Source: Gemmatimonadota bacterium
Lineage (GTDB): Bacteria; Gemmatimonadota; Gemmatimonadetes; Palauibacterales; Palauibacteraceae
NCBI GenBank assembly: GCA_039714435.1
Contig: JBDLJJ010000001.1
Coordinates: 3,717 to 67,716 of the forward strand
Length of the DNA: 64,000 bases
Direction of reading: 5' to 3'
The notes below the pieces were generated by a model that was given only the letters and a program-made list of their open reading frames with translations, was not told the origin of the DNA and did no database searches. The position numbers and the translations under genes were made by a program. This document shows, in pieces, positions 3,948 to 39,292 of the stretch (within the stretch, counting starts at the first letter, position 1; each line of letters opens with the position of its first letter).

Positions 3948-6227
3948 TCAGGCGCTGACCTTTCCGTCCGTGACGGCTTCCCCGATCGGCTGACTGTCAC
4001 CAATCCCGTTGCCTGCTGTCACGCCGCCCGGATAATCGATACGGCGGTGGTAGAGTCCGGTGAGGATACGGTCGAACTGAACCTTCACTTTCTCCAGATC
4101 CGCCAGCGTGAGAGGACAGTCGTCCAGTTGCCGGGCCCGAATCCTCTCGTCCACGATGTGGTCGATCAGCTCCCGGATGCTCTCCGGGTTCGGGTCGCCG
4201 AGCACCCTCGAAGATGACTCCACTCCGTCGGCCAGCATCACGATCGCCGTCTCTCGACTCTGCGGCCTCGGACCCGCGTAGGCGAAGTCGCCGGGATCCA
4301 GATCTACCGCCCCTTCTTCGCGGGCCCTGTCGAGAAAGTATTCGATGGCCATCGTGCCATGGTGTTCCCTGATAAAGCACTGGATGGTCTGCGGCAGCCG
4401 GCGCTCGGACGCCAGCCGCACACCCTCACTGACGTGATCGCGGATGATCTCGGCGCTCCTGGCGGGCGGCAGCCGGTCGTGCGGATTTCGGCCGGAAGGT
4501 TGGTTCTCCACAAAGAAATGCGGCTGTACCATCTTTCCGATGTCATGATAGTAGGATCCGACCCGAGCCAGGACCGGATTCGCCCCGATTGCGACGCAGG
4601 CGGCCTCAGCCAGGTTAGCCACATTGATGGAGTGAGCGTGCGTGCCGGGAGCCTTCAGAGACAGGTCACGCAGAAGAGGCCCGTTGAGATCCGACAGCTC
4701 CAGCAGGGTCTGGTCCGTGGTCCGCCCGGTGAGGCGCTCCAGAAGCGGTAGAGCTGCGCCCATCGCCAGCGCCGTGCACAGGGTGGCGTTGATGCTGCCC
4801 CAGAGGAACGTCTGCCACACCGTGGACAGCGGAAGCGGACGAATGCCGGCGATGGCCGCTCCCGCCAGCAGGTAGGCAACAGAAATACCGGCGATCACGA
4901 ACCACCCCTGCGCGCGCCGCCGCATGCCGCGCGCGCCGATCGTAGCCGCGCCGCCGCCGGCGATCATGAGCAGCGCCACGTCGAGGCCGAAGAAGGCCAT
5001 CTGTCCGGCTACCAGCGCCGCCGCAAACATTACGACGACAAGAGCTACGAGGCCGTCGTACAGGATGCCGATGTTGAGAGCCAGGAAAGCGATCGGAATC
5101 AATGCCTGGCTGGCCGAGCCCGCCGCGATAAGGCTCGCCACTACGAGCACGAAGACGAGATGAGCCATCACGATCGTCACTGCCCGTACGTCGCGATACA
5201 TCTCGGGCCGGAAGAACAGCAGAACGAGCGCCACGCCACCGACCAGGAGCAGACCGTAAAGGACACTTCCGGCCAGCGCGGCCGCTCCGCCCGCTCCGCT
5301 GGCTATCCCGCGCTGGACGAGCTCGTTGTTGTAGGCCCGCAGGCGCTCCGCTTCGGGGCGCCCGACCCTCTCGTGCGCGGAGATAAGGCGTTCACCTTCG
5401 AGGAAGAACCCGGCCGTCGTATCCACCGCGGCCCTGGCTTCGGCGCGGGCCATTTCGGTGGCGCTGCCATCGTGAACAAGGCTCGGCTGCGCGAACCTTA
5501 CCAGCAGGTTCTGGTACAGCCTGAAGACATCCGCCCCGGCCGAACTGGGAGCCAGCGCCGCAGCGGCCTGGAAGAACTGCCCCACCGTTACGACCGAGTC
5601 ACGATCCACCATCAGATCGGCGTCGCGCGTCTTGACCACGATGCGGCTGGTCGTAAGCCCCTGCATGTCGAGCCCTGGCGCCACCCCGGAGGGGAGCATG
5701 GACTCGTACGCCGAAGTGAGCGCCTGCCTCAGTTCGGCGCTGCTGGCCTCATCGGCCAGGTAGGATAGCTGCGCCGCCGTCGTTCCCATTCCGAGAGACC
5801 TGAGGTAGCGCTGGATTCCGGCTGAATCCTGATCGCCCGCGGCGGCGGCCGCTTCGCTCAGCGAGGCGAAAAAATCGTCCGTGCGGGCCACCGCGGTATC
5901 CACCGCGGCCGTGTCGAGCACGAAAACGGGCGGTACGCTGTGCGCCGCCTCGTCTCGCTCCACTTTCAGCCTGCCGGGAGACTTGGGAACTACGAAATCG
6001 AACGAGGCGATCACATCTTCCGCTGCGACCATTCCTTCCTGCAGAGCTACCGCATCCGGAACCGGAACGCGCGGAAACAGCATCGGCATTAGCAGCGCGA
6101 CCCCGACGACCAGGAGTATGCGATAGCCGTGATGGATCACACGAGCCGGCACCGAGTCACCCGGAGACCTGCTCAAGGCCCGAAACGCCTGGCGCACAGC
6201 GGCCAGCGCCGACTCCACTCTTCCCAC
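3948..6227 (-). CDS. 7TM receptor with intracellular HD/HDIG phosphohydrolase (PgpH/YqfF-like).
   Basis: 759 aa. It has an N-terminal extracytoplasmic region, a 7-TM block, and a C-terminal HD domain with the YYHDIGKM HDIG signature. It sits between phoH and ybeY, as in the Firmicutes yqfF locus. Confidence 0.8.
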   Translation of the reverse strand: MGRVESALAAVRQAFRALSRSPGDSVPARVIHHGYRILLVVGVALLMPMLFPRVPVPDAVALQEGMVAAEDVIASFDFVVPKSPGRLKVERDEAAHSVPPVFVLDTAAVDTAVARTDDFFASLSEAAAAAGDQDSAGIQRYLRSLGMGTTAAQLSYLADEASSAELRQALTSAYESMLPSGVAPGLDMQGLTTSRIVVKTRDADLMVDRDSVVTVGQFFQAAAALAPSSAGADVFRLYQNLLVRFAQPSLVHDGSATEMARAEARAAVDTTAGFFLEGERLISAHERVGRPEAERLRAYNNELVQRGIASGAGGAAALAGSVLYGLLLVGGVALVLLFFRPEMYRDVRAVTIVMAHLVFVLVVASLIAAGSASQALIPIAFLALNIGILYDGLVALVVVMFAAALVAGQMAFFGLDVALLMIAGGGAATIGARGMRRRAQGWFVIAGISVAYLLAGAAIAGIRPLPLSTVWQTFLWGSINATLCTALAMGAALPLLERLTGRTTDQTLLELSDLNGPLLRDLSLKAPGTHAHSINVANLAEAACVAIGANPVLARVGSYYHDIGKMVQPHFFVENQPSGRNPHDRLPPARSAEIIRDHVSEGVRLASERRLPQTIQCFIREHHGTMAIEYFLDRAREEGAVDLDPGDFAYAGPRPQSRETAIVMLADGVESSSRVLGDPNPESIRELIDHIVDERIRARQLDDCPLTLADLEKVKVQFDRILTGLYHRRIDYPGGVTAGNGIGDSQPIGEAVTDGKVSA

Positions 6228-7249: not shown

Positions 7250-9117
7250 TCGGCCTGCCTGAGCCGAAGCCCGAGCTCGGCCAGGCCCGCATCGTCGACC
7301 GGCGACGGGGAGCCCTCCATGAGCCCGCGGGCAGCCGATGTCTTGGGGAAGGCGATCACCTCCCGAATCGAGTCGGCCCCGACGAGAAGAGTGACCAGGC
7401 GATCCAGCCCCATACCGAATCCGCCATGGGGCGGCACTCCGTGCTGAAAGGAATCCAGCAGGAATCCGAAGCGCTCCTGAATCTGCTCTTCAGACATTCC
7501 GAGAGTTCTGAAAATCGTCGTCTGAAGCTCAGGGTCATGACAGCGAATGCTCCCGCTCACCAACTCCACGCCGTTGACGACGAGGTCGTAGGCGTGCGAC
7601 AGGTTCTCGTATGGCTCCTCCGAGATTCGACTCGGGGTCGGGTCCAGTGGCATACAGAAGGGGTTGTGGCTGTAGGTGGGCAGACCCGTTTCGGGATCCG
7701 GTTCGAATAGCGGAAATCTGGTGATCCAGGCGCACTCGAAGCCCTCAGCTACCGCGCCGAGCAGCTGGGCCGCGTGCCGCCGCAGAACGTCCAGGGCCGG
7801 GCCCGTCTCGGAGTCCGGACCCGCTACGAGGAAGAGAAGATCCCCTTCGTCCACCCCGTGCTCATTCCGCAGCTTCTCGCCCAGTGCTTCATCGACGAAC
7901 TTGGCCGGAGCTCCAGACCAGGCATCTGGATTCCGCTTCAGCCACATGGCGCCCTTGGCTCCCGCGGACTGCGCCATCTCGTTCGCCTCGTCCAGCTGGC
8001 GCCTCGACAGAGCTGCTCCTCCGGGTATTCGCAGACCCCGAATTCGTCCGCCCGACGCGCTCGCCGATTCGAAAATTCCGAAGCCGATGCCGGTCAGACA
8101 GTCTGTCAGGTCCTGGATTCGCCACGAAATGCGCAGGTCGGGTTTGTCGGACCCGAAGAACTCCATGGCGTTGGCGTAGGTCAGGCGCCGGAAGGGCAGA
8201 TCCAGCTCGACCTGCACGGTCTCCCGAAACACGCGATCCAGCATCTTCTCACACACAGCGAACACGTCCTGTTCCTCGACGAAGGACATTTCGAGGTCGA
8301 TCTGAGTGTGCTCCGGTTGCCGGTCGGCACGCAGATCTTCGTCCCGTAGGCAGCGCGCCAGCTGGTAATACCGATCGAAACCGGCCGCCATCAAGAGCTG
8401 CTTGTAAATCTGCGGAGACTGGGGCAGCGCGTAGAACTCGCCCGGGTGGACACGGCTCGGGACCAGATAGTCGCGGGCTCCCTCAGGCGTTCGGCGAGTC
8501 AGAAACGGCGTCTCAACCTCCAGGAACCCCTCTTCGTTGAGGGCGGCCCGGGCGGCGGTGACGGCGCGGTGGCGGATCTCGAAGTTGCGCAGCATGTCCG
8601 GCCGGCGAAGGTCCAGAACCCTGTGGCGCAGCCGCAGCTCCTCGGAGGGAAGCTCCTCCTCCGGGGGTACGGCTACCAGTATGGGCAGCGGAGCGGCCCG
8701 CGACAGCAGCTCCAGAGACTCCACCTGGATTTCCACGGCTCCGGTACTCATGTCGGTGTTGACCATCTCGGGCGGACGCGCACGCACGACACCGCTCACG
8801 ACGACGACGTCTTCGGGCCCTAGTTTGCCCGCCAGGGCCAGTGCTTGCTCGTTCGTCCAATCGGGCCGAAACGAGAGCTGCACCAGGCCGGCCCGGTCTC
8901 TCAGATCGATGAAGAAAAGGCCACCCAGATCGCGTCTGCGATGAACCCAGCCCGCGACTCGAACGGTGCGGTCGGTCCAAGAAGCGTCGAGATCTCCACA
9001 CGGCGAGTCGCGCAGGGCGGTCGCCAGTGAAGTCGCAGCGCTGGGCGCGGCTGGAGAAACGGTTTCAGTCAAAGTGGATTGATCCTCCTGGAGCGCACGG
9101 TCTGCCATGCCTGACAA
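7246..9117 (-). CDS. aspS: Aspartate--tRNA ligase.
   Basis: 623 aa with an anticodon-binding OB fold ([26 protein letters not shown]) and the class II motifs [11 protein letters not shown] and [11 protein letters not shown]. It carries an N-terminal extension of about 35 aa relative to typical AspRS, with no nearer canonical start codon. Confidence 0.9.
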
Positions 9118-9153
9118 GTGGGGTGATCTGGATCCCGTGCGTGGTGCATTATC

Positions 9154-9167
9154 GGCCGCCCAAGATA
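9154..9167. repeat. Exact 14-mer GGCCGCCCAAGATA, copy 1, in the aspS/rlmN divergent promoter region.
   Basis: The identical 14-mer recurs at 19365-19378, upstream of the S8 peptidase gene. Both copies lie 25-60 bp upstream of minus-strand gene starts. Confidence 0.5.
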
Positions 9168-9276
9168 CCCCGGCCCTTGCGGGCCAGCAAGCAACACGGC
9201 AGCGTTCGAGCCCTAGTTTCCGGGTATATTCTCCGTTCGCGGCGGGCCGTTTGTGGCCGCCCGCTCAAAGGGCCAT

Positions 9277-10338
9277 ATGACGCTACAGCCTCTTCTGGAC
9301 ATGTCTCCGTCGGACGCCGAGCAGTCGCTGACGGACTTCCTGGCGGCACGTGGCGAGGAGCCATATCGGGCCCGGCAGATCCTGTCATGGGTTTATGAGC
9401 ACAGAGCGACCTCATTCGCGGATATGAGTTCGCTGCCCGCCCCGGTCAGAACCGCGCTAGCGGACGAATACTCGTTGACACTTCTGAGCGAAGCCTTTTC
9501 AGCCAGATCCAGAGACGGGACACTGAAGCACCTGTGGGCCCTGGACGACGGCGAGCAGGTGGAGTCGGTGTTAATCCCCGTGGAAGGACGCGTCACGCTG
9601 TGTATTTCCTCGCAGGTGGGCTGCGCGCTGGGCTGTGGGTTCTGCGCCACCGGTATGTTCGGTTTTCGGCGGCAGCTCAGTGCTGCCGAGATCGCGGCCC
9701 AGTTTCGAGAGGCCGACGGAGCTTCACGGCGGGCCTTCGGCCGGCCCGTATCGAATCTCGTCTACATGGGAATGGGCGAGCCTTTCGCCAACGCGGACGC
9801 GGTCTTCACGTCGCTGTCCGTGATTCACGGCGGTTTCGGCTTCGGAGCCCGCCGAATCACAGTGTCCACCGTAGGCCTGATCCCCGGAATTCGGCGCCTG
9901 GCCGCCCGCCCGGAAGCGTTTCGGCTGGCGGTTTCTCTGCACGCGCCAAACCATGAGCTGCGGATGACGCTTGTCCCCATCGAGCAGCGCTACCCCCTGC
10001 CGGAGCTGTTCGAGGCGCTGCGGGACTACCAGAAGATCAAGAATAGGCGAATCACATTCGAGTACACCCTGATCGAAGGGATCAACGACTCGGTCGAGCT
10101 GGCGGACCAGCTGGCCGATATTTCCACTGGCCTGGACGTATTCGTTAACCTGATTCCGCTCAACCCGGTCCCGGGAATCGATTTGCGCCCCAGCCCGAGG
10201 CGGCAGGTGGACAAGTTTCGTATGGCTCTCGAGGCGCGCGGAATTCCGGCCGCCGTGCGCCAGCCACGGGGACGGGATATCGCCGCGGCCTGCGGTCAGC
10301 TTCGACTTGAGCGCGACGCGGCGGCTACGTCTCGGTAG
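9277..10338 (+). CDS. rlmN: Dual-specificity rRNA/tRNA m2A methyltransferase RlmN (radical SAM).
   Basis: It has a CxxxCxxC cluster in the context SSQVGCALGCGFCATG and a C-terminal DIAAACGQL. The N-terminus RARQILSWVY matches RlmN. The ATG at 9277 is preferred over the track's GTG at 9253. Confidence 0.9.
   Translation: MTLQPLLDMSPSDAEQSLTDFLAARGEEPYRARQILSWVYEHRATSFADMSSLPAPVRTALADEYSLTLLSEAFSARSRDGTLKHLWALDDGEQVESVLIPVEGRVTLCISSQVGCALGCGFCATGMFGFRRQLSAAEIAAQFREADGASRRAFGRPVSNLVYMGMGEPFANADAVFTSLSVIHGGFGFGARRITVSTVGLIPGIRRLAARPEAFRLAVSLHAPNHELRMTLVPIEQRYPLPELFEALRDYQKIKNRRITFEYTLIEGINDSVELADQLADISTGLDVFVNLIPLNPVPGIDLRPSPRRQVDKFRMALEARGIPAAVRQPRGRDIAAACGQLRLERDAAATSR
10128..10240 (+). repeat. 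Direct repeat copy 1 (about 110 bp), forming the functional 3' end of rlmN.
   Basis: It is about 90% identical to 11688-11800 by my own alignment (cctggacgtattcgttaacctgattccgctcaacccggtcccgggaatcgatttgcgccccagcccgaggcggcaggtggacaagtttcgtatggctctcgagg). Confidence 0.8.
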
Positions 10339-10470
10339 GGGGTGGTTTGCCAAGAGGTCGTGTCGGCCTATTGCTATCCTGACCCAAAACGCGATCTTGG
10401 TTCAGTTTAATTCATAAGTTGAACTATAGAGACTGTCGGGATCAGAATGCGCGGAGAGCACATCCCCTGT

Positions 10471-11643
10471 ATGTGGGAGTGGAATCCCACTCTTTACGCA
10501 CCCGCTCGGTACCGCCGAGCCTGCAAGTTTGAGGCTTTCCTTCCATACCCGCTAGCCCTCTCTGACTTCAACCTGAGCGCTGAGATTGCAGGCATCGTTT
10601 CTGACGCAGAACAGGCAATTCTGAAGCTCAATGCACGGGCAGACCCGGCTCTTACACCACTGGCTCGCCTTCTCCTCCGCACTGAGTCCATCGCATCCTC
10701 TAAGGTCGAGGGCCTGCAGGTTGGAATCCGACAGCTCGCTCGCGCCGAGTCGAGGATGGAGACGGGAGGCAAAATCTCGCGAACCGTCCTCGAGGTCATC
10801 GGCAACATCGATGCGATGGAGCTAGCTGTAGAGCAAGCTGCTGCGGCCGATTCTGTTTGCCTCGGGCACATTACTGAAATCCATCGAGAATTGATGGCAA
10901 ACGCTCCCAACTCTCGATGCGCGGGAGTGGTGCGTACTGAACAGAACTGGATTGGCGGAAACGATTACAATCCTTGCGGCGCCGACTTCGTGCCACCGCC
11001 ACCAGAGCACGTAGACCGACTCCTACAGGATCTGTGTGAGGCGATTGCGGATGAATCCCTTTCTCCTCTCGTTCAGGCCGCGATGGTGCACGGACAATTC
11101 GAAACCATCCACCCTTTTGACGACGGAAACGGCCGCACCGGTCGCGCCTTGATCCATGTGGTGCTCCGAAGGAGAGGGGTGGCGGTGTCCTACGTTCCTC
11201 CGATCAGCGTCATGCTAGCCAGGGATCGGACCGGATATATAAATGGCCTCGTCGAGTTCAGGGAAGACCAGATCGGCTCTTGGATCGCCGGTTTCGCAGC
11301 AGCGGCGGCTCAAGCCGCAAGGTTAGCTGAATGCTATCTGGAGGCCGTCAACCTCCAAATGGATGAGTGGAGAAAACGGCTTTCGCAGGGCCCCAACCCC
11401 AGAGCCGATGCGGCGGCCTGGGCGTTAATCGAGGTTCTTCCCGCACACCCAATCATCACGACCCCGGTAGCCGCCGCCGCGACTGGCAGAGCCAAGGCGG
11501 CAGTCCACCAAGCGGTTAGTCAGCTAACCGATTGTGGCGTATTGGAAGCGATCTCATCGTCCAAACGCAACCGGTCTTGGGAAGTGATGGGTCTTCTGGA
11601 ACTTCTGGAGAACCTTGAGGCGGGTGAAATGCCAACGGGTTAG
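10471..11643 (+). CDS. Fic family protein (class II, self-inhibited AMPylator) with a C-terminal winged-helix region.
   Basis: It has a canonical Fic active-site motif HPFDDGNGRTGR. An N-terminal inhibitory-helix motif SSKVEG ((S/T)xxxEG) is on the same chain. Its MWEWNP start is typical of this Fic subfamily. The gene has lower GC than its flanks and is preceded by a 130-bp AT-rich spacer. Confidence 0.85.
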   Translation: MWEWNPTLYAPARYRRACKFEAFLPYPLALSDFNLSAEIAGIVSDAEQAILKLNARADPALTPLARLLLRTESIASSKVEGLQVGIRQLARAESRMETGGKISRTVLEVIGNIDAMELAVEQAAAADSVCLGHITEIHRELMANAPNSRCAGVVRTEQNWIGGNDYNPCGADFVPPPPEHVDRLLQDLCEAIADESLSPLVQAAMVHGQFETIHPFDDGNGRTGRALIHVVLRRRGVAVSYVPPISVMLARDRTGYINGLVEFREDQIGSWIAGFAAAAAQAARLAECYLEAVNLQMDEWRKRLSQGPNPRADAAAWALIEVLPAHPIITTPVAAAATGRAKAAVHQAVSQLTDCGVLEAISSSKRNRSWEVMGLLELLENLEAGEMPTG

Positions 11644-11687
11644 CCCACCCCTTCCTGGCGCACGCGCCGGCATCTCCACCCGCCTGG

Positions 11688-11800
11688 ACGTGTTCGTCAA
11701 CCTGATTCCGCTCAACCAGGTCCCGGGAATCATTTGGCGCCCCAGCCCCAGACGGCAGGTGGAGAAGTTTCGCATGGCTCTCGAGGAGAGGCTGGAGCTG
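11688..11800 (+). pseudogene. Displaced remnant of the rlmN 3' end (direct repeat copy 2).
   Basis: It encodes DVFVNLIPLNQVPGIIWRPSPRRQVEKFRMALEE, which matches RlmN residues DVFVNLIPLNPVPGIDLRPSPRRQVDKFRMALEA, and then diverges. It lacks the RlmN C-terminus and abuts the 3' end of the convergent LytR_C gene. Confidence 0.7.
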
Positions 11801-12256
11801 CTAGCGGCTGCCGCTGAAGGAGCGCCAGTCCTGGCCCAGAATCACGGTGGCGTCAAGGCGGAGATCCGGCCGGGGTTCGTGCACGACGGGCGGACCGCCC
11901 AGCGAATCGGCCACCTCGGCGGCGGCCCCGGCGACCCCGCTGCGATCTACCACGGTGGTCCGTTCGTAGTCGAACCGCTTCGCGTTGCCGTAGGTCTTTA
12001 CGTCGAAGCCCATGGCGCGCAGCCGGTCGGCCACCTGCTCGGCCGCGCCCTTCTCCCCCGCCCCGTTCAGCACCTCGACCCCGATTCGGTCATCCAGGGG
12101 CGCGCGGCCGGCCGTGGCCGGACGTCCCGAGAACACCCCCGGAGGCCCGCCTGCATCGAGCCGCGTATGCCGCCACTCGAGCCAGAATGAACCGACAAGT
12201 ACTCCGACGCCGACCAGTACGGCCACGACCAGGAGTGTGTGGAGCCTATTCTTCAC
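11801..12256 (-). CDS. LytR_C (cell-envelope-related transcriptional attenuator C-terminal) domain membrane protein.
   Basis: 151 aa. It has an N-terminal TM helix and a LytR_C-like core (VEVLNGAGEKGAAEQVADRLRAMGFDVKTYGNAK...TTVV). Confidence 0.65.
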   Translation of the reverse strand: MKNRLHTLLVVAVLVGVGVLVGSFWLEWRHTRLDAGGPPGVFSGRPATAGRAPLDDRIGVEVLNGAGEKGAAEQVADRLRAMGFDVKTYGNAKRFDYERTTVVDRSGVAGAAAEVADSLGGPPVVHEPRPDLRLDATVILGQDWRSFSGSR

Positions 12257-12821
12257 TGGCTACCAACCGGTTCCAGTAGTGAATGGACTCGAGAAGCACT
12301 TCGTGCCCGTTAGACAGAGCGCCAGCCACCCGGAGCTGGATGACCTCCTTGAGGACCCTCTGTCGATCCTCCGGCAGCTTTTCTCTCAGCGAGGCGCGCC
12401 TCTTCCGCCTGAACGTGCGGCCCGGCTCCAGATAGTCCGCCAGGTACAGGTAGTCGGCCAGGAGTCCGAAGTCCGGGTGTCCGGTCGAATGATACGACAT
12501 GGCGAGGAGAAATTCCTCGTCATCCACACCGGCCCGGCGCAGCCGCTCGGCGCAGGCGGGACCGTGTAGCAGTTTGGCTGGCCAGCGACCATCCGCCAAG
12601 GGCCGAAGTTCTTCGGGACCGGCGTCTTTCAGCGCGTCATGCAGGTAGCCAGCCGCCTTCCAGCGCACCACTTGCTTGCGCGACAAGCCGAGAGCCTTGG
12701 CCCATTCTCCCATCAGACGCGAGACGCGGCGCACGTGTTTGATCCTCTTCGGATCGCAGCGGGCCCACTTGGGGAGCTGCTCTTCCTCGCCCGCCTTTCG
12801 AATTAGCGGATGGAGCTTCAC
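12246..12821 (-). CDS. yqeK: YqeK-family HD phosphohydrolase (putative symmetrical Ap4A hydrolase).
   Basis: It has an HD domain (YLHD) and the YqeK-specific motifs AMSYHSTGHP and LYLADYLEPGR. I chose the internal GTG at 12821, which forms a GTGA overlap with the panC stop, over the track's longer 12893 start. Confidence 0.75.
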   Translation of the reverse strand: MKLHPLIRKAGEEEQLPKWARCDPKRIKHVRRVSRLMGEWAKALGLSRKQVVRWKAAGYLHDALKDAGPEELRPLADGRWPAKLLHGPACAERLRRAGVDDEEFLLAMSYHSTGHPDFGLLADYLYLADYLEPGRTFRRKRRASLREKLPEDRQRVLKEVIQLRVAGALSNGHEVLLESIHYWNRLVASEE

Positions 12822-13705
12822 AGGTCCGCCGTCCCGCCCAGCGGCGTGTTGTCGATCAGCCGAGTAGAGCCGACGACCGCGGCCACGGCGCATACCGAAC
12901 GGGCGCCCGCTTCAGCGTCCTCGTTCAGAGTCTCTGGATCGACCACGGCCACGTATTCTGGCGTCAGTCCGGCCGTTTCCAACACACCAGACGCCGCCTG
13001 CTTGAGTCTCAGAGCGTCGGTCTCTCCGCCAGCGAAGCTGGCGCAAGCGGCCCGCAAACCGCCAGCCAGGGCCAGGGCCTGGACTCGTTGTTCGGGGCTC
13101 AGGTACACGTTGCGCGAGCTGAGGGCCAGGCCGTCCGCCTCTCGAACGACGGGCGCCACGTCTATCTCAACCGGCAGCGCCAGATCCCGGCACATGGCCC
13201 GGATCAGCACCGATTGCTGAAAATCCTTGCGCCCGAACACCGCCGCCGATGGCTCCACGATCTGAAACAGCTTCAGTACGACCGTGAGCACGCCGCGAAA
13301 GTGGCCCGGCCGGCTGGCGCCGCACAGCGTACCGGCCAGCGGACCCGGATCTACCCAGATTCGCTGAGGACTCGGATACATCTCATGCTCTTCCGGCGCG
13401 AATACGTAGTCGGCTCCCCGGGCCCCTGCCAACTCGATATCGGCCGACAGGTCGCGCGGATAGCGGGAGAAATCTTCGCCTGGGCCAAACTGGGACGGGT
13501 TCACGAAAATCGACACGCACACATGGTCAGCCAGGGAGCGGGCCCGATCGATCAGGCTCAGATGTCCCTCGTGCAGCGATCCCATAGTAGGGACGAGAGC
13601 TAGCGAGCTGCCGCCGTCCCGCAGGCGCCGCGACAGCCCTCTCATCTCGCGGACGGTGCGCAGAACAGGCAGATCGCCGAACACCTCAGGCTGCCGGCCA
13701 GGCAC
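12818..13705 (-). CDS. panC: Pantoate--beta-alanine ligase (pantothenate synthetase).
   Basis: 295 aa with LALVPTMGSLHEGHLSLI (HIGH-type) and a PanC fold. It is contiguous with panB. Confidence 0.9.
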   Translation of the reverse strand: MPGRQPEVFGDLPVLRTVREMRGLSRRLRDGGSSLALVPTMGSLHEGHLSLIDRARSLADHVCVSIFVNPSQFGPGEDFSRYPRDLSADIELAGARGADYVFAPEEHEMYPSPQRIWVDPGPLAGTLCGASRPGHFRGVLTVVLKLFQIVEPSAAVFGRKDFQQSVLIRAMCRDLALPVEIDVAPVVREADGLALSSRNVYLSPEQRVQALALAGGLRAACASFAGGETDALRLKQAASGVLETAGLTPEYVAVVDPETLNEDAEAGARSVCAVAAVVGSTRLIDNTPLGGTADL

Positions 13706-35420: not shown

Positions 35421-38400
35421 ATGGTTTCCACACGTCGTACGATGCAGGGAGCTTTCGCTTCCGCTCTTGCGCTCCTCCTCTTGGCCGCGCCAGCCGCAGC
35501 CCAGCAGACGACGGGAGCAATCCGCGGCACGGTCTCGGCCACTACTGGCGAGCCAATTGCGGCTACCGAAATGACCGCAACGAACGTCGCGACTGGTGTT
35601 CGCCAGGCCACGATCTCTGGGGCCAACGGCAGGTATATCTTCCCGTCGCTCCAGGTCGGACGGTATCGCGTAGAGGCGAGGCGGATCGGCTACCAGGCGC
35701 TGGTCCGGGAATCGATCCGGGTGTCGCTCGGCGGAACGGTGGTGCAGGATTTTGCCATGGAAGTCAGCGCGGCGGAGCTTGATCCGATCGTGGTGGCCGG
35801 CGCGAGGCCTCTTATCGATCCGGCTGAGACTGGTGTCGTGGACCTGGTCAGTTCGGAGGAAATCAACGCTATCCCCGCGCTGGGCCGTAATTTCTCCGAC
35901 CTGGTGGCTCTGTCGCCGAAGGTGGGAGTTTCGGCCGGCGACGGTACAGGCGGAAACCTTTCGCTGGGCGGCGGACGCCGCGGTGCGAATCTCGTTCAGA
36001 TCGACGGCGCGGGTTCGACCGGAACGTTCTTCGGCGGTGAAGCGCGCGGATCGGACCGCATTCCGTTCGCCTTCTCTATCGAGAGCGTACAGGAGTTCCA
36101 GGTCGTGTCCAACGGATTCGACGTGGAGTTCGGCTTCTTCACAGGCGGCGTAATCAACGCGGTCACCAAGTCCGGCACTAATGAAGTGCACGGCTCGCTG
36201 TTCGGATACTTTCAGGACGATCAGTTTACGCGCGCCGATTTCCAGGGTCGATCGGCCGACTTCAAATCGCGGCAGCTCGGCGGCACCTTGTCGGGTCCCC
36301 TTATTCGCGACAAGCTTCACTTCTTCGTCGCCGTGGAGCGCCAGGACCGGGATCAGCCGATCTTCGGTCTTCCGGCGCCCGGTACCGCTCCTGACCCGAC
36401 GACGCGCGTCCATCCGGACAGCGTGGCGCGGTTCCTGGAGATCCTGGAAAGGGTTTACGGCGTAACGGACGCGGCTGGACAAATCAATCAGACGCAGGAC
36501 GAATGGTCGGTGTTCGGCAGGCTCGACTGGCAGCTCAACGACAAGCACCGGCTGACCCTTCGCCACAACTACACCGATCTCGAGCAATTGGGCGATCGGG
36601 TAAATCCAGATGAGACGATCCTCAACGGTGGGGTGTTCAACAACACCAGCAACTCGTTCGTGGCTCAGTTGAACTCGGTGTTCACTCCGACTGTATGGAA
36701 CGAGTTCCGCGGTCAGTACGCTACTGAGCCGAGGCCGCGTACGGCCAATACCCTGCTTCCCGAGGCCGAGGTCAACGTCACGAGCGACTTCGGTGGCGGC
36801 GAGACTCAGTCCCTGCGGGGCCTTGAGTGCTGCAACGACGCGGTTCTTCCGAATAACCTCGAGGAAACCACGATCGAGCTGAGCAACAGCCTGCACATTC
36901 TGGCCGGCGACCATGAGGTCAAGCTGGGCGGAATCTACAATCGTTTTGACTATGTGAATTTCTTCTTCTTCAATCAGCAAGGTCAGTTTGACTTCAACAG
37001 TCTGGAGGACTTCGAGAATCAGCAGCCGGACGACTTCAACAGAAATCTTCCCAATCCGGGTCCGGACGGACAGTTCTTTACGGATGACGACGTCGGCCCG
37101 TTGGCGGACTACGCGACGAGCGAGGTTGGGCTGTACATTCAGGATACCTGGTCAGCTGGCGACAAGCTCAGCATCCAGGCGGGTGTCCGGTTCGACTTTA
37201 CCAAAATGCTCGATTCGGCTCCGCTCAACTCCCAGCTCGTGACTGACCTTGGTATTAGCACCGATTTTCGCCCGGACGACAACAATATCTCACCGCGCCT
37301 GAGCTTCACCTACGATCCGACAGGTGAAGGCAGCAGCATCATTCGCGGTGGCGGCGGCCTGTTCTTCGGTCGGTTCCCATCGGTGCTCTATTCGAACTCG
37401 CTGCTCAACACAGGCGGCAACCAGCTCGGGCTGTTCTGTGATGACGATGAGGTGCCGTTCCCGGATTATCAGGCGTTCGCGGCTGACCTGACCAACATTC
37501 CGACGGCGTGCGCTGGCGGCGGCGGTGCTTCCCCCCCGACCGCGGACATCAACACGTTCTCGCCGGATTTCGAGTACCCGAAGACATTTAAGGCCAGCCT
37601 CGGGTACGAGCAGGAGATCGGTGAGGGCTTCAAGCTCGACTTCGACTTCTTGCTCGCGAATACTACCAGCAACTTCTCCGTACAGGATCAGAACCAGGGT
37701 CCCGAGTTGTTCCGGTCAGGCATCGAGAATCGCCCGGTGTTCTCCACCGTTCGATCTTCAGGCAGTCCCTCGTCGAGCGCCGGCCGAATCACGAACAACT
37801 TTGACGAAGTATTGGTGCACGTCAGCAACTCAGAGTCGCGGACATACCAGCTTTCGGTCGGTCTCTCGCAGCGCGGAGAGACATTCAGTTGGCAAACTGG
37901 ATACACGTACTCTGATAGCAAGGACAACAACTCCTACTCCTGCTGCACCACGACGACGGGTATTTTCGAGCAGACAACAGCAGGAAACGTCAACTTCATC
38001 GGCGATCGCGGCGATGACGTTGAGGGTAACTGGGGCACGGCTGACTTCAACCGCAAACACACGTTCGTGCTTTCAGGGAACGCCGCCCTGCCGGCCGATT
38101 TCGAGATCAGCGGAATCTGGAGAACCTTCTCCGGGCGGCCGTGGACCGCCGTCGTCGACGGCAACGTCAACGGTGACCGTGACTTCGGAAACGATCGGGC
38201 GTACATCGGAACCAATCTGGTGTTCGACGATCCGGCCGCGGATGTGGCCCAGCTGAACGAGCACATGGCCAACCATAGCTGTTTGCGCGAAGCAGAAGGT
38301 CGAATCATCGGCCGCAACACCTGCGAAAATGACTTCTTTACACAGGTGGACATGCGGCTGCGCAAAGGATTCAACATCAAAGGCAACCAGAAGTTCGAGA

Positions 38401-38630
38401 TCATAGTAGACGCGTTCAACGTGCTCAACTTGATCAACGACGATTGGAGCCGTCAGATCGGAGTGGGATCGTTCAGCGATGAGACAGAGCTGCTCTCCGT
38501 GGAAGGCTTCGACTCGGCGACCAATACGTTCGTCTACTCGGTCAATCCGAGCTTCGGTGAAGAGAGCGATCTCAACCGGTTCCGGACCAATCAGGGCACG
38601 CTGCAGCTGGGCGTGAAGTACGTCTTCTAG
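35421..38630 (+). CDS. TonB-dependent outer-membrane receptor with an N-terminal CarboxypepD_reg-like domain.
   Basis: 1069 aa with a signal peptide and a CarboxypepD_reg segment (GTVSATTGEPIAATEMTATNVATGVRQATISGANGRYIFPSLQVGRYRV). It has a plug and a 22-strand barrel ending in the C-terminal aromatic ...LGVKYVF. Its GC is lower than the surrounding genes. Confidence 0.85.
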   Translation: MVSTRRTMQGAFASALALLLLAAPAAAQQTTGAIRGTVSATTGEPIAATEMTATNVATGVRQATISGANGRYIFPSLQVGRYRVEARRIGYQALVRESIRVSLGGTVVQDFAMEVSAAELDPIVVAGARPLIDPAETGVVDLVSSEEINAIPALGRNFSDLVALSPKVGVSAGDGTGGNLSLGGGRRGANLVQIDGAGSTGTFFGGEARGSDRIPFAFSIESVQEFQVVSNGFDVEFGFFTGGVINAVTKSGTNEVHGSLFGYFQDDQFTRADFQGRSADFKSRQLGGTLSGPLIRDKLHFFVAVERQDRDQPIFGLPAPGTAPDPTTRVHPDSVARFLEILERVYGVTDAAGQINQTQDEWSVFGRLDWQLNDKHRLTLRHNYTDLEQLGDRVNPDETILNGGVFNNTSNSFVAQLNSVFTPTVWNEFRGQYATEPRPRTANTLLPEAEVNVTSDFGGGETQSLRGLECCNDAVLPNNLEETTIELSNSLHILAGDHEVKLGGIYNRFDYVNFFFFNQQGQFDFNSLEDFENQQPDDFNRNLPNPGPDGQFFTDDDVGPLADYATSEVGLYIQDTWSAGDKLSIQAGVRFDFTKMLDSAPLNSQLVTDLGISTDFRPDDNNISPRLSFTYDPTGEGSSIIRGGGGLFFGRFPSVLYSNSLLNTGGNQLGLFCDDDEVPFPDYQAFAADLTNIPTACAGGGGASPPTADINTFSPDFEYPKTFKASLGYEQEIGEGFKLDFDFLLANTTSNFSVQDQNQGPELFRSGIENRPVFSTVRSSGSPSSSAGRITNNFDEVLVHVSNSESRTYQLSVGLSQRGETFSWQTGYTYSDSKDNNSYSCCTTTTGIFEQTTAGNVNFIGDRGDDVEGNWGTADFNRKHTFVLSGNAALPADFEISGIWRTFSGRPWTAVVDGNVNGDRDFGNDRAYIGTNLVFDDPAADVAQLNEHMANHSCLREAEGRIIGRNTCENDFFTQVDMRLRKGFNIKGNQKFEIIVDAFNVLNLINDDWSRQIGVGSFSDETELLSVEGFDSATNTFVYSVNPSFGEESDLNRFRTNQGTLQLGVKYVF

Positions 38631-38682
38631 AACGATTCGGACGGAGTAAACAGCGGCCCGCACCTTGCGTGGCAGCGGAGAA

Positions 38683-38715
38683 GGGGGCGGAGGCGACTCT
38701 GCCCCCTTCTTTTTT
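38683..38715 (+). terminator. Rho-independent terminator after the TonB receptor gene.
   Basis: GGGGGC (38683-38688) pairs with GCCCCC (38701-38706) across a 12-nt loop. It is followed by TTCTTTTTT at 38707-38715. Confidence 0.6.
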
Positions 38716-38752
38716 CGACAACCAGTTCCGAGCGGACAACCATGGAGGATTT

Positions 38753-39292
38753 GTGAGACATGCAGTAGCGGCAGTTTTGGTAGGCCTGGTAAGCGCCAGC
38801 TGCGCCGGAGAGGGACCCGATACTGTGGCAGAACAGTTCTGGACAGCGGCCCAGGCGCGGGACATAGAAACCGTCGAGGCGCTTTCGGTCGAATCGGAGT
38901 CAACGCAGCTGAACTTCGAGAACGAAGACAACGCCATCGACGCGTTTGAACTAGGCGATTCGTTTGAAGAAGATGGCGAAACGCTGGTGCCGACATCGCT
39001 AAAGAGCAGCACTGGCGAAAAAGCCCTGGAGTTTGATTTCGAGACTGTGATGGTGAAGCGAGAGGGTGCATGGAAGGTGGATCTGGATGAGACGGGCAAC
39101 CGGATGATCCGGGCTGTGCTGGGCGCGTCGATGGAAGAACTCGGCCAAGCCATCGGCGAGGGAATGAAAGAAGCGATGGAAGGTGTCGCGGAGGGAATGG
39201 CCGAGGGCATGAGAGAGATGGGCGAAGCTATGGGCGAGGCCATGGAGGAAGGTTTCGAGCCAGGCCAGGATCCGGAACCGGCCGCCGAGTAG
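38753..39292 (+). CDS. Small lipoprotein (DUF4878-like N-terminal domain) with a C-terminal Met/Glu-rich repeat tail.
   Basis: The GTG at 38753 gives VRHAVAAVLVGLVSASCAGEG, a signal peptide with a lipobox. The tail is EGMKEAMEGVAEGMAEGMREMGEAMGEAMEEG. The track start at 38669 would overlap the terminator, so I trimmed it. Confidence 0.5.
   Translation: MRHAVAAVLVGLVSASCAGEGPDTVAEQFWTAAQARDIETVEALSVESESTQLNFENEDNAIDAFELGDSFEEDGETLVPTSLKSSTGEKALEFDFETVMVKREGAWKVDLDETGNRMIRAVLGASMEELGQAIGEGMKEAMEGVAEGMAEGMREMGEAMGEAMEEGFEPGQDPEPAAE

Follow-up and report, generated by a model that had tools for sequence, protein, structure and literature searches.

In a 64-kb stretch of a metagenome-assembled contig from a Gemmatimonadota bacterium (contig JBDLJJ010000001.1; hereafter the window, with positions counted from its first letter), a single gene for a Fic protein stands between the 3' end of rlmN and a displaced second copy of part of that end. 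The rlmN gene itself is intact (9277-10338, forward strand). It encodes 353 amino acids (aa), scores 350 bits against TIGR00048 (cut-off 290) and carries the RlmN_N and Radical_SAM domains; its start is placed at the ATG at 9277, the longest open reading frame (ORF) beginning with GTG at 9253. Downstream of a short spacer follows the Fic gene, which encodes a class-2, SoFic-like candidate AMPylase (10447-11643, forward strand, 398 aa; Pfam Fic 5e-22, Fic_N 1e-8). Beyond the displaced rlmN fragment lies a gene with a LytR_C domain (11801-12256, reverse strand; Pfam LytR_C 3.5e-18), convergent with both rlmN and fic.

A repeat search of the 64-kb window returned a direct repeat, 10114-10234 against 11666-11786 (121 nucleotides (nt), 88% identity, ungapped, spacing 1552), which MAFFT and a codon-registered comparison extend to 10114-10240 against 11666-11792, with 108 of 125 positions identical. 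Overall identity is 86-88%, and exactly two copies are present within the window. A 26-nt core pattern of the repeat occurs there exactly twice and not at all in 100 shuffles, and the longest identical run common to the two copies measures 19 nt. A candidate extension at the 5' side (10099-10107 against 11655-11663, 8 of 9 matches) is weak and needs a 4-nt gap. Copy 1 (10114-10240, forward strand) lies inside the functional rlmN, spanning codons ~280-321. Copy 2 (11666-11792, forward strand) is internally in frame, yet it is a truncated pseudo-rlmN fragment: the last ~97 nt of the gene are missing, that is, 32 codons and the stop codon, including the catalytic C-terminal Cys region. It ends 8 nt short of the convergent LytR_C stop codon, and local alignment of these 8 nt (11793-11800) with the rlmN 3' end is not significant. 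Between the copies we find the last 98 nt of rlmN with its stop codon, a spacer, one intact Fic gene and a 22-nt filler.

An earlier note on this DNA had described the repeat, the cargo and the decayed remnant from the letters of the sequence. The repeat is real and its copies do align, with one correction: the second interval, given as 11688-11800, is off by ~8 nt, and the partner of 10128-10240 is 11680-11792. The spacer from the rlmN stop codon to fic, put at 130 bp and called AT-rich, has a GC content of 0.47 and is 108 nt long. The remnant is truncated and non-functional, as the note had it; its loss had been estimated at ~35 codons, and rather than abutting LytR_C it leaves the short gap described above. 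The absence of an integrase, excisionase or transposase between the repeats is confirmed, fic being the only gene found there and, among ORFs of 50 aa or longer, the only one between the copies with a family match.

What does this junction look like without a Fic gene? We compared three roughly equidistant congeners that are 85-87% identical in amino acid sequence over 9 genes: the window, L001 (the L087 lineage) and the pair L085/L086. At an rlmN identity of at least 80% aa, these are the only two lineages found besides the source (84% for L001/L087, 80% for L085/L086), and all three rlmN genes are 1062 nt long. The window, L001 and L085 are collinear from mgtE to panB, with flanks that remain collinear over at least 14 kb. 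The site is empty in L085/L086, where the stop codons of rlmN and LytR_C share the tetranucleotide CTAG (9059-9062 in L085), a 4-nt overlap. In the more distant Gemmatimonadota L002-L005 the convergent ORFs share 20-23 nt at their ends, and in L007 they are separated by a gap of 30 nt. Fic is absent from the rlmN loci of the relatives examined. The tail-to-tail overlap of rlmN and LytR_C, two unrelated core genes, is thus conserved across L002-L005 and L085.

The third congener holds a different cargo at the same place. In L001 (7063-8455, equal to 9063-10455 in L087), a lone 421-aa gene of the PF00144 beta-lactamase family with 49.6% GC sits precisely between the stop codons of rlmN and LytR_C, preceded by a 119-nt spacer, followed by 8 nt, and accompanied by neither an rlmN repeat nor any other flanking repeat. 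The LytR_C stop codon at this junction is TAA, altered from TAG. Homology of either occupied genome to the relatives ends exactly at the two stop codons. The LytR_C stop codon of the window lies in a CTAG (11801-11804), the same as in the empty site of L085, and homology with L001 and L085 on this side begins exactly at that codon; the LytR_C protein is 91% identical to its L001 counterpart. The junction thus takes three states in three congeners: fic with a repeat in the window, an unrelated PF00144 gene without one in L001, and no insert in L085. We conclude that the junction is an insertion hot spot and that fic is an insertion, as the earlier note had supposed and as the empty sites in L085/L086, L002-L005 and L007 bear out. 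Exact-protein look-ups with the Fic ORF, the annotated Fic P0001 and LytR_C found no record, and a metagenome scan with LytR_C for closer relatives returned distant matches only. A further variable spot is found nearby in L007, where ~2.6 kb (7383-9986) separates LytR_C from an HD/YqeK-like gene; the two are adjacent in the other genomes.

Composition sets the Fic gene apart from its surroundings. Its GC content is 0.584, against a window mean of 0.644, and its GC content at third codon positions (GC3) of 0.617 is the lowest among the ~55 ORFs of the window, the genes near it having 0.75-0.83. The gene is therefore compositionally foreign, as had been claimed, although the window mean falls short of the ~67% offered for the flanks. 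Relatives in other genomes point the same way: four of five (L081, L089, L090 and L092) have a GC3 of 0.75-0.79, and the fifth, L082, has 0.66 in a locus of 60% GC, so that the window fic is an outlier and probably stems from a donor of lower GC.

The encoded protein has both marks of a class-2 Fic. An inhibitory-helix motif, SSKVEG, lies near the N-terminus (10696-10713, forward strand; aa 84-89 of the translation) and fits (S/T)xxxE(G/N), the motif by which the class is defined (PMC12249575). The catalytic motif HPFDDGNGRTGR (11110-11145, forward strand; aa 222-233) conforms to HxFx(D/E)GNGRxxR. The PADLOC model for SoFic matches residues 27-388 with 5e-72; the NCBIfam model ProtAdlyltaseSoFic reaches 62.9 bits, far under its equivalog cut-off of 550. 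The best solved relative is PDB 7cb8_A (9e-58), and PDB chains of the Shewanella SoFic match weakly (1.8e-11), in the C-terminal half only. SoFic has been described as a single-protein abortive-infection defence system, and the E. coli Sofic has a 47-aa antitoxin, AS1, downstream (PMC12249575). Like the SoFic proteins of PADLOC and DefenseFinder and the E. coli Sofic with its AS1 (PMC12249575), the window protein has a class-2 architecture, in its case SSKVEG, the catalytic motif and a C-terminal domain, and it gives a full-length PADLOC match. Unlike them, it is only distantly related to the Shewanella SoFic, misses the NCBIfam cut-off and has no AS1-like ORF; downstream of fic we found no credible candidate for a small antitoxin of the AS1 type. 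It is probably an anti-phage defence gene of the SoFic type, a function that we infer from these similarities. The public annotation of the protein (P0001, 390 aa) begins at Met9, that is, at 10471. The ATG at 10447 (MRG...) is conserved across all aligned homologs and is the likelier start.

The gene does not travel alone. A nested palindrome of ~80 nt that includes the fic ATG (10370-10449, forward strand) is conserved in six loci of different genomes: besides the window, it is found in L082 (9924-10003), L081 (1-63), L089 (~255-339), L090 (~5922-6006) and L092 (~5922-6006). Its outer arms are ATCCTGAACC and GGTTCAGGAT, the second overlapping the ATG, and its inner arms are CTTgGTTCAG and CTGAACcAAG; in all it holds four GTTCAG half-sites. 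Of the 28 pairs in the consensus fold, 2 are compensatory, the single-sequence fold gives z = -2.2, and there is no Rfam match. Homology of the window DNA to these fic relatives is restricted to 10370-11624, which is the gene with ~77 nt upstream. The palindrome travels with fic and is probably an operator or a structure of the 5' untranslated region. It could serve as operator for the winged-helix domain at the C-terminus of Fic, or form a hairpin that sequesters the start codon.

Do the relatives of this gene carry the traces of a mobile element? The SoFic-like family is very large (7235 of 8000 scored candidates at E<=1e-20), and the nearest relatives of the window protein are 80% and 75% identical to it. 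In the five other loci that we inspected (69-80% aa identity), fic is flanked by unrelated housekeeping genes that differ from locus to locus, and flanking direct repeats, an association with rlmN and a fic-adjacent integrase or recombinase were all not found there. Of genes related to mobility, these loci show a single one: at the end of L090, ~2.3 kb away from fic, lies a fragment of IS21 IstB. In phage and plasmid collections the best matches to the Fic protein stay below 40% identity, which rules out carriage of the window fic by the phages and plasmids represented there. In L082 a PF00144 gene adjoins fic, and this prompted the idea of a larger ancestral island, with a PF00144 gene and fic, that was later split between L001 and the window; the PF00144 proteins of L001 and L082 are only 25% identical, and we discarded it.

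The account we favor, with a probability of roughly 0.55, is a one-off duplicative insertion: a horizontally acquired class-2 Fic gene of the SoFic type entered a permissive rlmN/LytR_C hot spot, and copy 2 is the pseudogene scar of that event. The geometry of the site is central to it. Since rlmN and LytR_C touch or overlap at their 3' ends, an insertion that spares both genes must either duplicate sequence or supply it. So tight a junction argues that the insertion was duplicative and that the repeat is its by-product. Fic would have arrived with its own palindromic control region upstream and come to lie between two copies of the 3' part of rlmN. The left one would have stayed in the working rlmN, and the right one, being redundant, would have lost its last ~97 nt and begun to decay. 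No recombinase would have been required. Such an event may have followed one of two routes. In the first, end-joining or template switching would have produced a local duplicative insertion. In the second, the partner in a one-ended or Campbell-type homologous recombination would have been DNA of a related strain in which rlmN-fic was already present. By the second route the two copies would once have been alleles, which would agree better with their pN/pS, given below; for transformation, cases of duplication set off by incoming DNA are documented (PMC3784515). Both the joining mechanism and the direction of the event, that is, which copy was resident, belong to the reconstructed part of this account. 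On this account the junction is a permissive hot spot and not a specific attachment site.

An intact gene, then cargo, then a displaced fragment of its end: this order is the classical signature of site-specific integration, and it weighs against a one-off insertion. Islands that integrate into the 3' ends of genes supply a replacement end, and in integrations of the e14/icd type the displaced copy runs on to the original stop codon. In E. coli, e14 and phage 21 reportedly integrate into the 3' end of icd. The window resembles that case in having a functional gene with its 3' end complete, cargo after it and, on the far side, a diverged part of that end whose differences are rich in synonymous changes. 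It departs from it in that the cargo is one gene on 1.3 kb with no integrase or other element gene, the ~97 nt next to the original stop codon are missing from the displaced copy, the complete one has a native look, and no further instance of the fic unit with the same rlmN repeats was found. Could the locus be what remains of such a prophage, integrative and mobilizable element or genomic island, with the rest, including the integrase, deleted, or else a cassette mobilized in trans? The layout, the empty sites in relatives and the synonymous-rich differences between the copies, as expected of two once-functional alleles, agree with this proposal. So does the precedent of an actinomycete integrative and conjugative element, AICE03, inserted in rlmN of Streptomyces strain RLB3-6 with 11-nt repeats, an integrase, an excisionase, and transfer and replication genes (PMC9513070); this precedent also qualifies the earlier note's remark that rlmN is not a commonly described target. 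The resemblance to AICE03 extends to the target gene and to direct repeats around the insert; none of those genes occurs in the fic insert, whose repeats are not 11 nt long.

The details of the locus speak against an element of this kind. Neither a recombinase nor a remnant of one lies between the repeats, and unassigned sequence around the fic unit comes to just 31 nt on one side and 22 nt on the other. Divergence between the copies is 12-14%; their longest identical run, which could be an old crossover core or a coincidence, is 19 nt within 125 nt at 86%, and the displaced copy has lost the original 3' end and stop codon. Homologs of the Fic gene at 69-80% aa occur elsewhere without such a repeat, target or integrase, and L001 holds other cargo at the same junction without repeats. 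The 3' end that an element should have supplied behaves as vertically inherited rlmN: sliding identity along the gene is flat against both L001 and L085, and the poorly conserved C-terminal tail RLERDAAATSR is identical in the window and L001. The absence of any discontinuity also led us to reject a mosaic or recombination breakpoint within rlmN. No integrase was found in the compositionally deviant parts of the window. On these grounds we consider a site-specific remnant unlikely, and the two claims of the earlier note that depend on it, a dedicated element with an attachment site in rlmN and an element-supplied replacement end, are not upheld.

The substitutions that separate the copies are harder to reconcile with a scar formed in place, and they form the second point to be set against our account. 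Copy 1 and copy 2 differ by 9 synonymous and 9 non-synonymous changes; the proportions of changed synonymous and non-synonymous sites (pS and pN) are 0.284 and 0.095, giving a pN/pS of 0.34 (Fisher p = 0.017 against neutrality). Among true orthologs the same stretch of rlmN yields a similar ratio of 0.24-0.41, while ~0.6 would be expected had copy 2 been neutral since an in-situ duplication. A model of such neutrality is not rejected by the 18 differences; by our estimate its P is ~0.04-0.16, depending on the calculation. The low ratio nevertheless hints at divergence of the copies while they were functional alleles of different genomes, and it would also fit a 3' end supplied by an element of the e14/icd type. 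Moreover, synonymous divergence between the copies amounts to 55-60% of the window-versus-L001 value, and at more than half of that value a scar formed in situ would be old; that an old scar has survived without an indel is somewhat surprising. There are also limits of scope. The relatives compared are congeners, none of them conspecific, with which the event is undated and the resident copy not identifiable; and the inspection for recombinases covered 64 kb of the genome, with a Pfam scan of ~20 of the ~55 ORFs.

The two copies have at least 11 derived nucleotides in common relative to L001 and L085, which makes them each other's closest relatives and places both in the lineage of the window. 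Each also keeps ancestral states that are gone from the other: copy 2, for example, retains the outgroup residues W and E, and copy 1 retains P and D. Does this sisterhood call for two events? An old tandem duplication of the rlmN 3' end could have un-overlapped the genes, and fic could later have entered the resulting non-coding gap independently. The depth of divergence (pS 0.28), the position of the copies as sisters within the window lineage and the repeat-free cargo of L001 are all compatible with such a history. It demands one event more than a duplicative insertion, though; a duplication without cargo is seen in no relative examined, and the pN/pS is below what so long a period of neutrality should have produced. 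We regard it as quite unlikely.

A further rival is a chimeric join of strain variants during assembly: the source is a contig of a metagenome-assembled genome, with no second assembly of the same species to confirm it. Yet no more than 19 bases in a row are identical between the copies, too short a run for typical k-mer graphs to be joined wrongly. L001 and L085 match both flanks in gene order over the whole distance stated above, fic is intact, and a truncated copy 2 joined to LytR_C fits neither putative parent. An assembly artefact therefore seems a remote prospect.

We searched the window for other signatures of mobility. No transposase was found, and no conserved terminal inverted repeats as would befit a transposon, an insertion sequence or a miniature inverted-repeat element: a candidate pair, GGGGTGG and CCCACCCC after the two stop codons, was rejected, since its right arm is absent in L081 and L082, and the 7-nt GGGGTGG/CCACCCC match between the two insert ends is conserved in neither. 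An integron cassette is not indicated either, there being no attC-like hairpin downstream of fic (z = -0.27, in rlmN-derived sequence), no array and no Rfam match. A tRNA target is excluded by the absence of tRNA genes from the 64-kb window. Copy 2 and the region downstream of fic fold no better than shuffled sequence, with the same z, and copy 2 has neither an Rfam match nor a terminator-like site; together these results rule out a structured RNA or terminator in copy 2. Low-GC patches elsewhere in the window contain no integrase or recombinase that we could find. One of them, at 35421-39292 (GC 0.57-0.58), encodes a 1069-aa outer-membrane protein resembling TonB-dependent receptors (OMP_b-brl_4, CarboxypepD_reg), followed by a 207-aa ORF (38669-39292, GC3 0.66) without a Pfam match; the patch holds no mobility genes.

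There is, in sum, no positive support for an autonomous or satellite mobile element at this locus. A bolder proposal would take the overlapping stop codons of rlmN and LytR_C as a targeted landing site in the genus, at which a putative trans-acting mechanism inserts single promoter-bearing genes, such as fic in the window and a serine hydrolase in the other species, and the rlmN repeat is att-like, in effect an integrase-less mini-cassette system. We hold this to be very improbable. Defence genes commonly reside in hot spots flanked by core genes and free of genes of mobile genetic elements (PMC10250203). Like cDHS1/2 of Pseudomonas aeruginosa (PMC10250203), the rlmN/LytR_C spot is flanked by core genes, is empty in some genomes and holds deviant, differing cargo in others, shows no mobility genes, and has received at least one cargo of defence type. 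It is far smaller than cDHS1/2, with single genes at a junction of <=0 nt, and is known from three genomes of one genus only. A visible scar of partial duplication, which such hot spots usually lack, further distinguishes it.

Several smaller features complete the description of the junction, whose unassigned sequence is limited to stretches of 31, 22 and 8 nt. The left filler (10339-10369, 31 nt, GC 0.65, no strand assigned) is not conserved with other fic loci, and in local alignment it resembles neither the rlmN 3' end nor the L001 spacer to a significant degree. The right filler (11644-11665, 22 nt, GC 0.77, no strand assigned) contains an exact 10-nt inverted match to rlmN, 11655-11664 against 10254-10263 (CTGGCGCACG and CGTGCGCCAG), which is weak (shuffle p ~0.03). 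The match ties the filler upstream of copy 2 to a part of rlmN that is absent from copy 2, and could be chance or a trace of joining. Local alignments of both fillers and of the L001 spacer were not significant, and an origin of these pieces from rlmN or LytR_C was rejected on that basis. Beyond LytR_C, the longest HD/YqeK-like ORF of the window (12246-12893, 215 aa) overlaps panC by 76 nt; its orthologs have a called length of 189 aa (L085 and L087), and the true start therefore probably lies further downstream.

What does this locus tell us about its host? It is a small and clean case of how a dense genome accepts a single foreign gene, probably one for defence, at a point where two core genes overlap tail to tail. 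Partial duplication lets rlmN and LytR_C both survive, and the spare copy decays. On present evidence the locus reveals no new mechanism of mobility and looks like an ordinary insertion scar at a hot spot of gene exchange. With three states in three congeners, the rlmN/LytR_C junction could serve as a marker locus for gene flux in this poorly sampled phylum.

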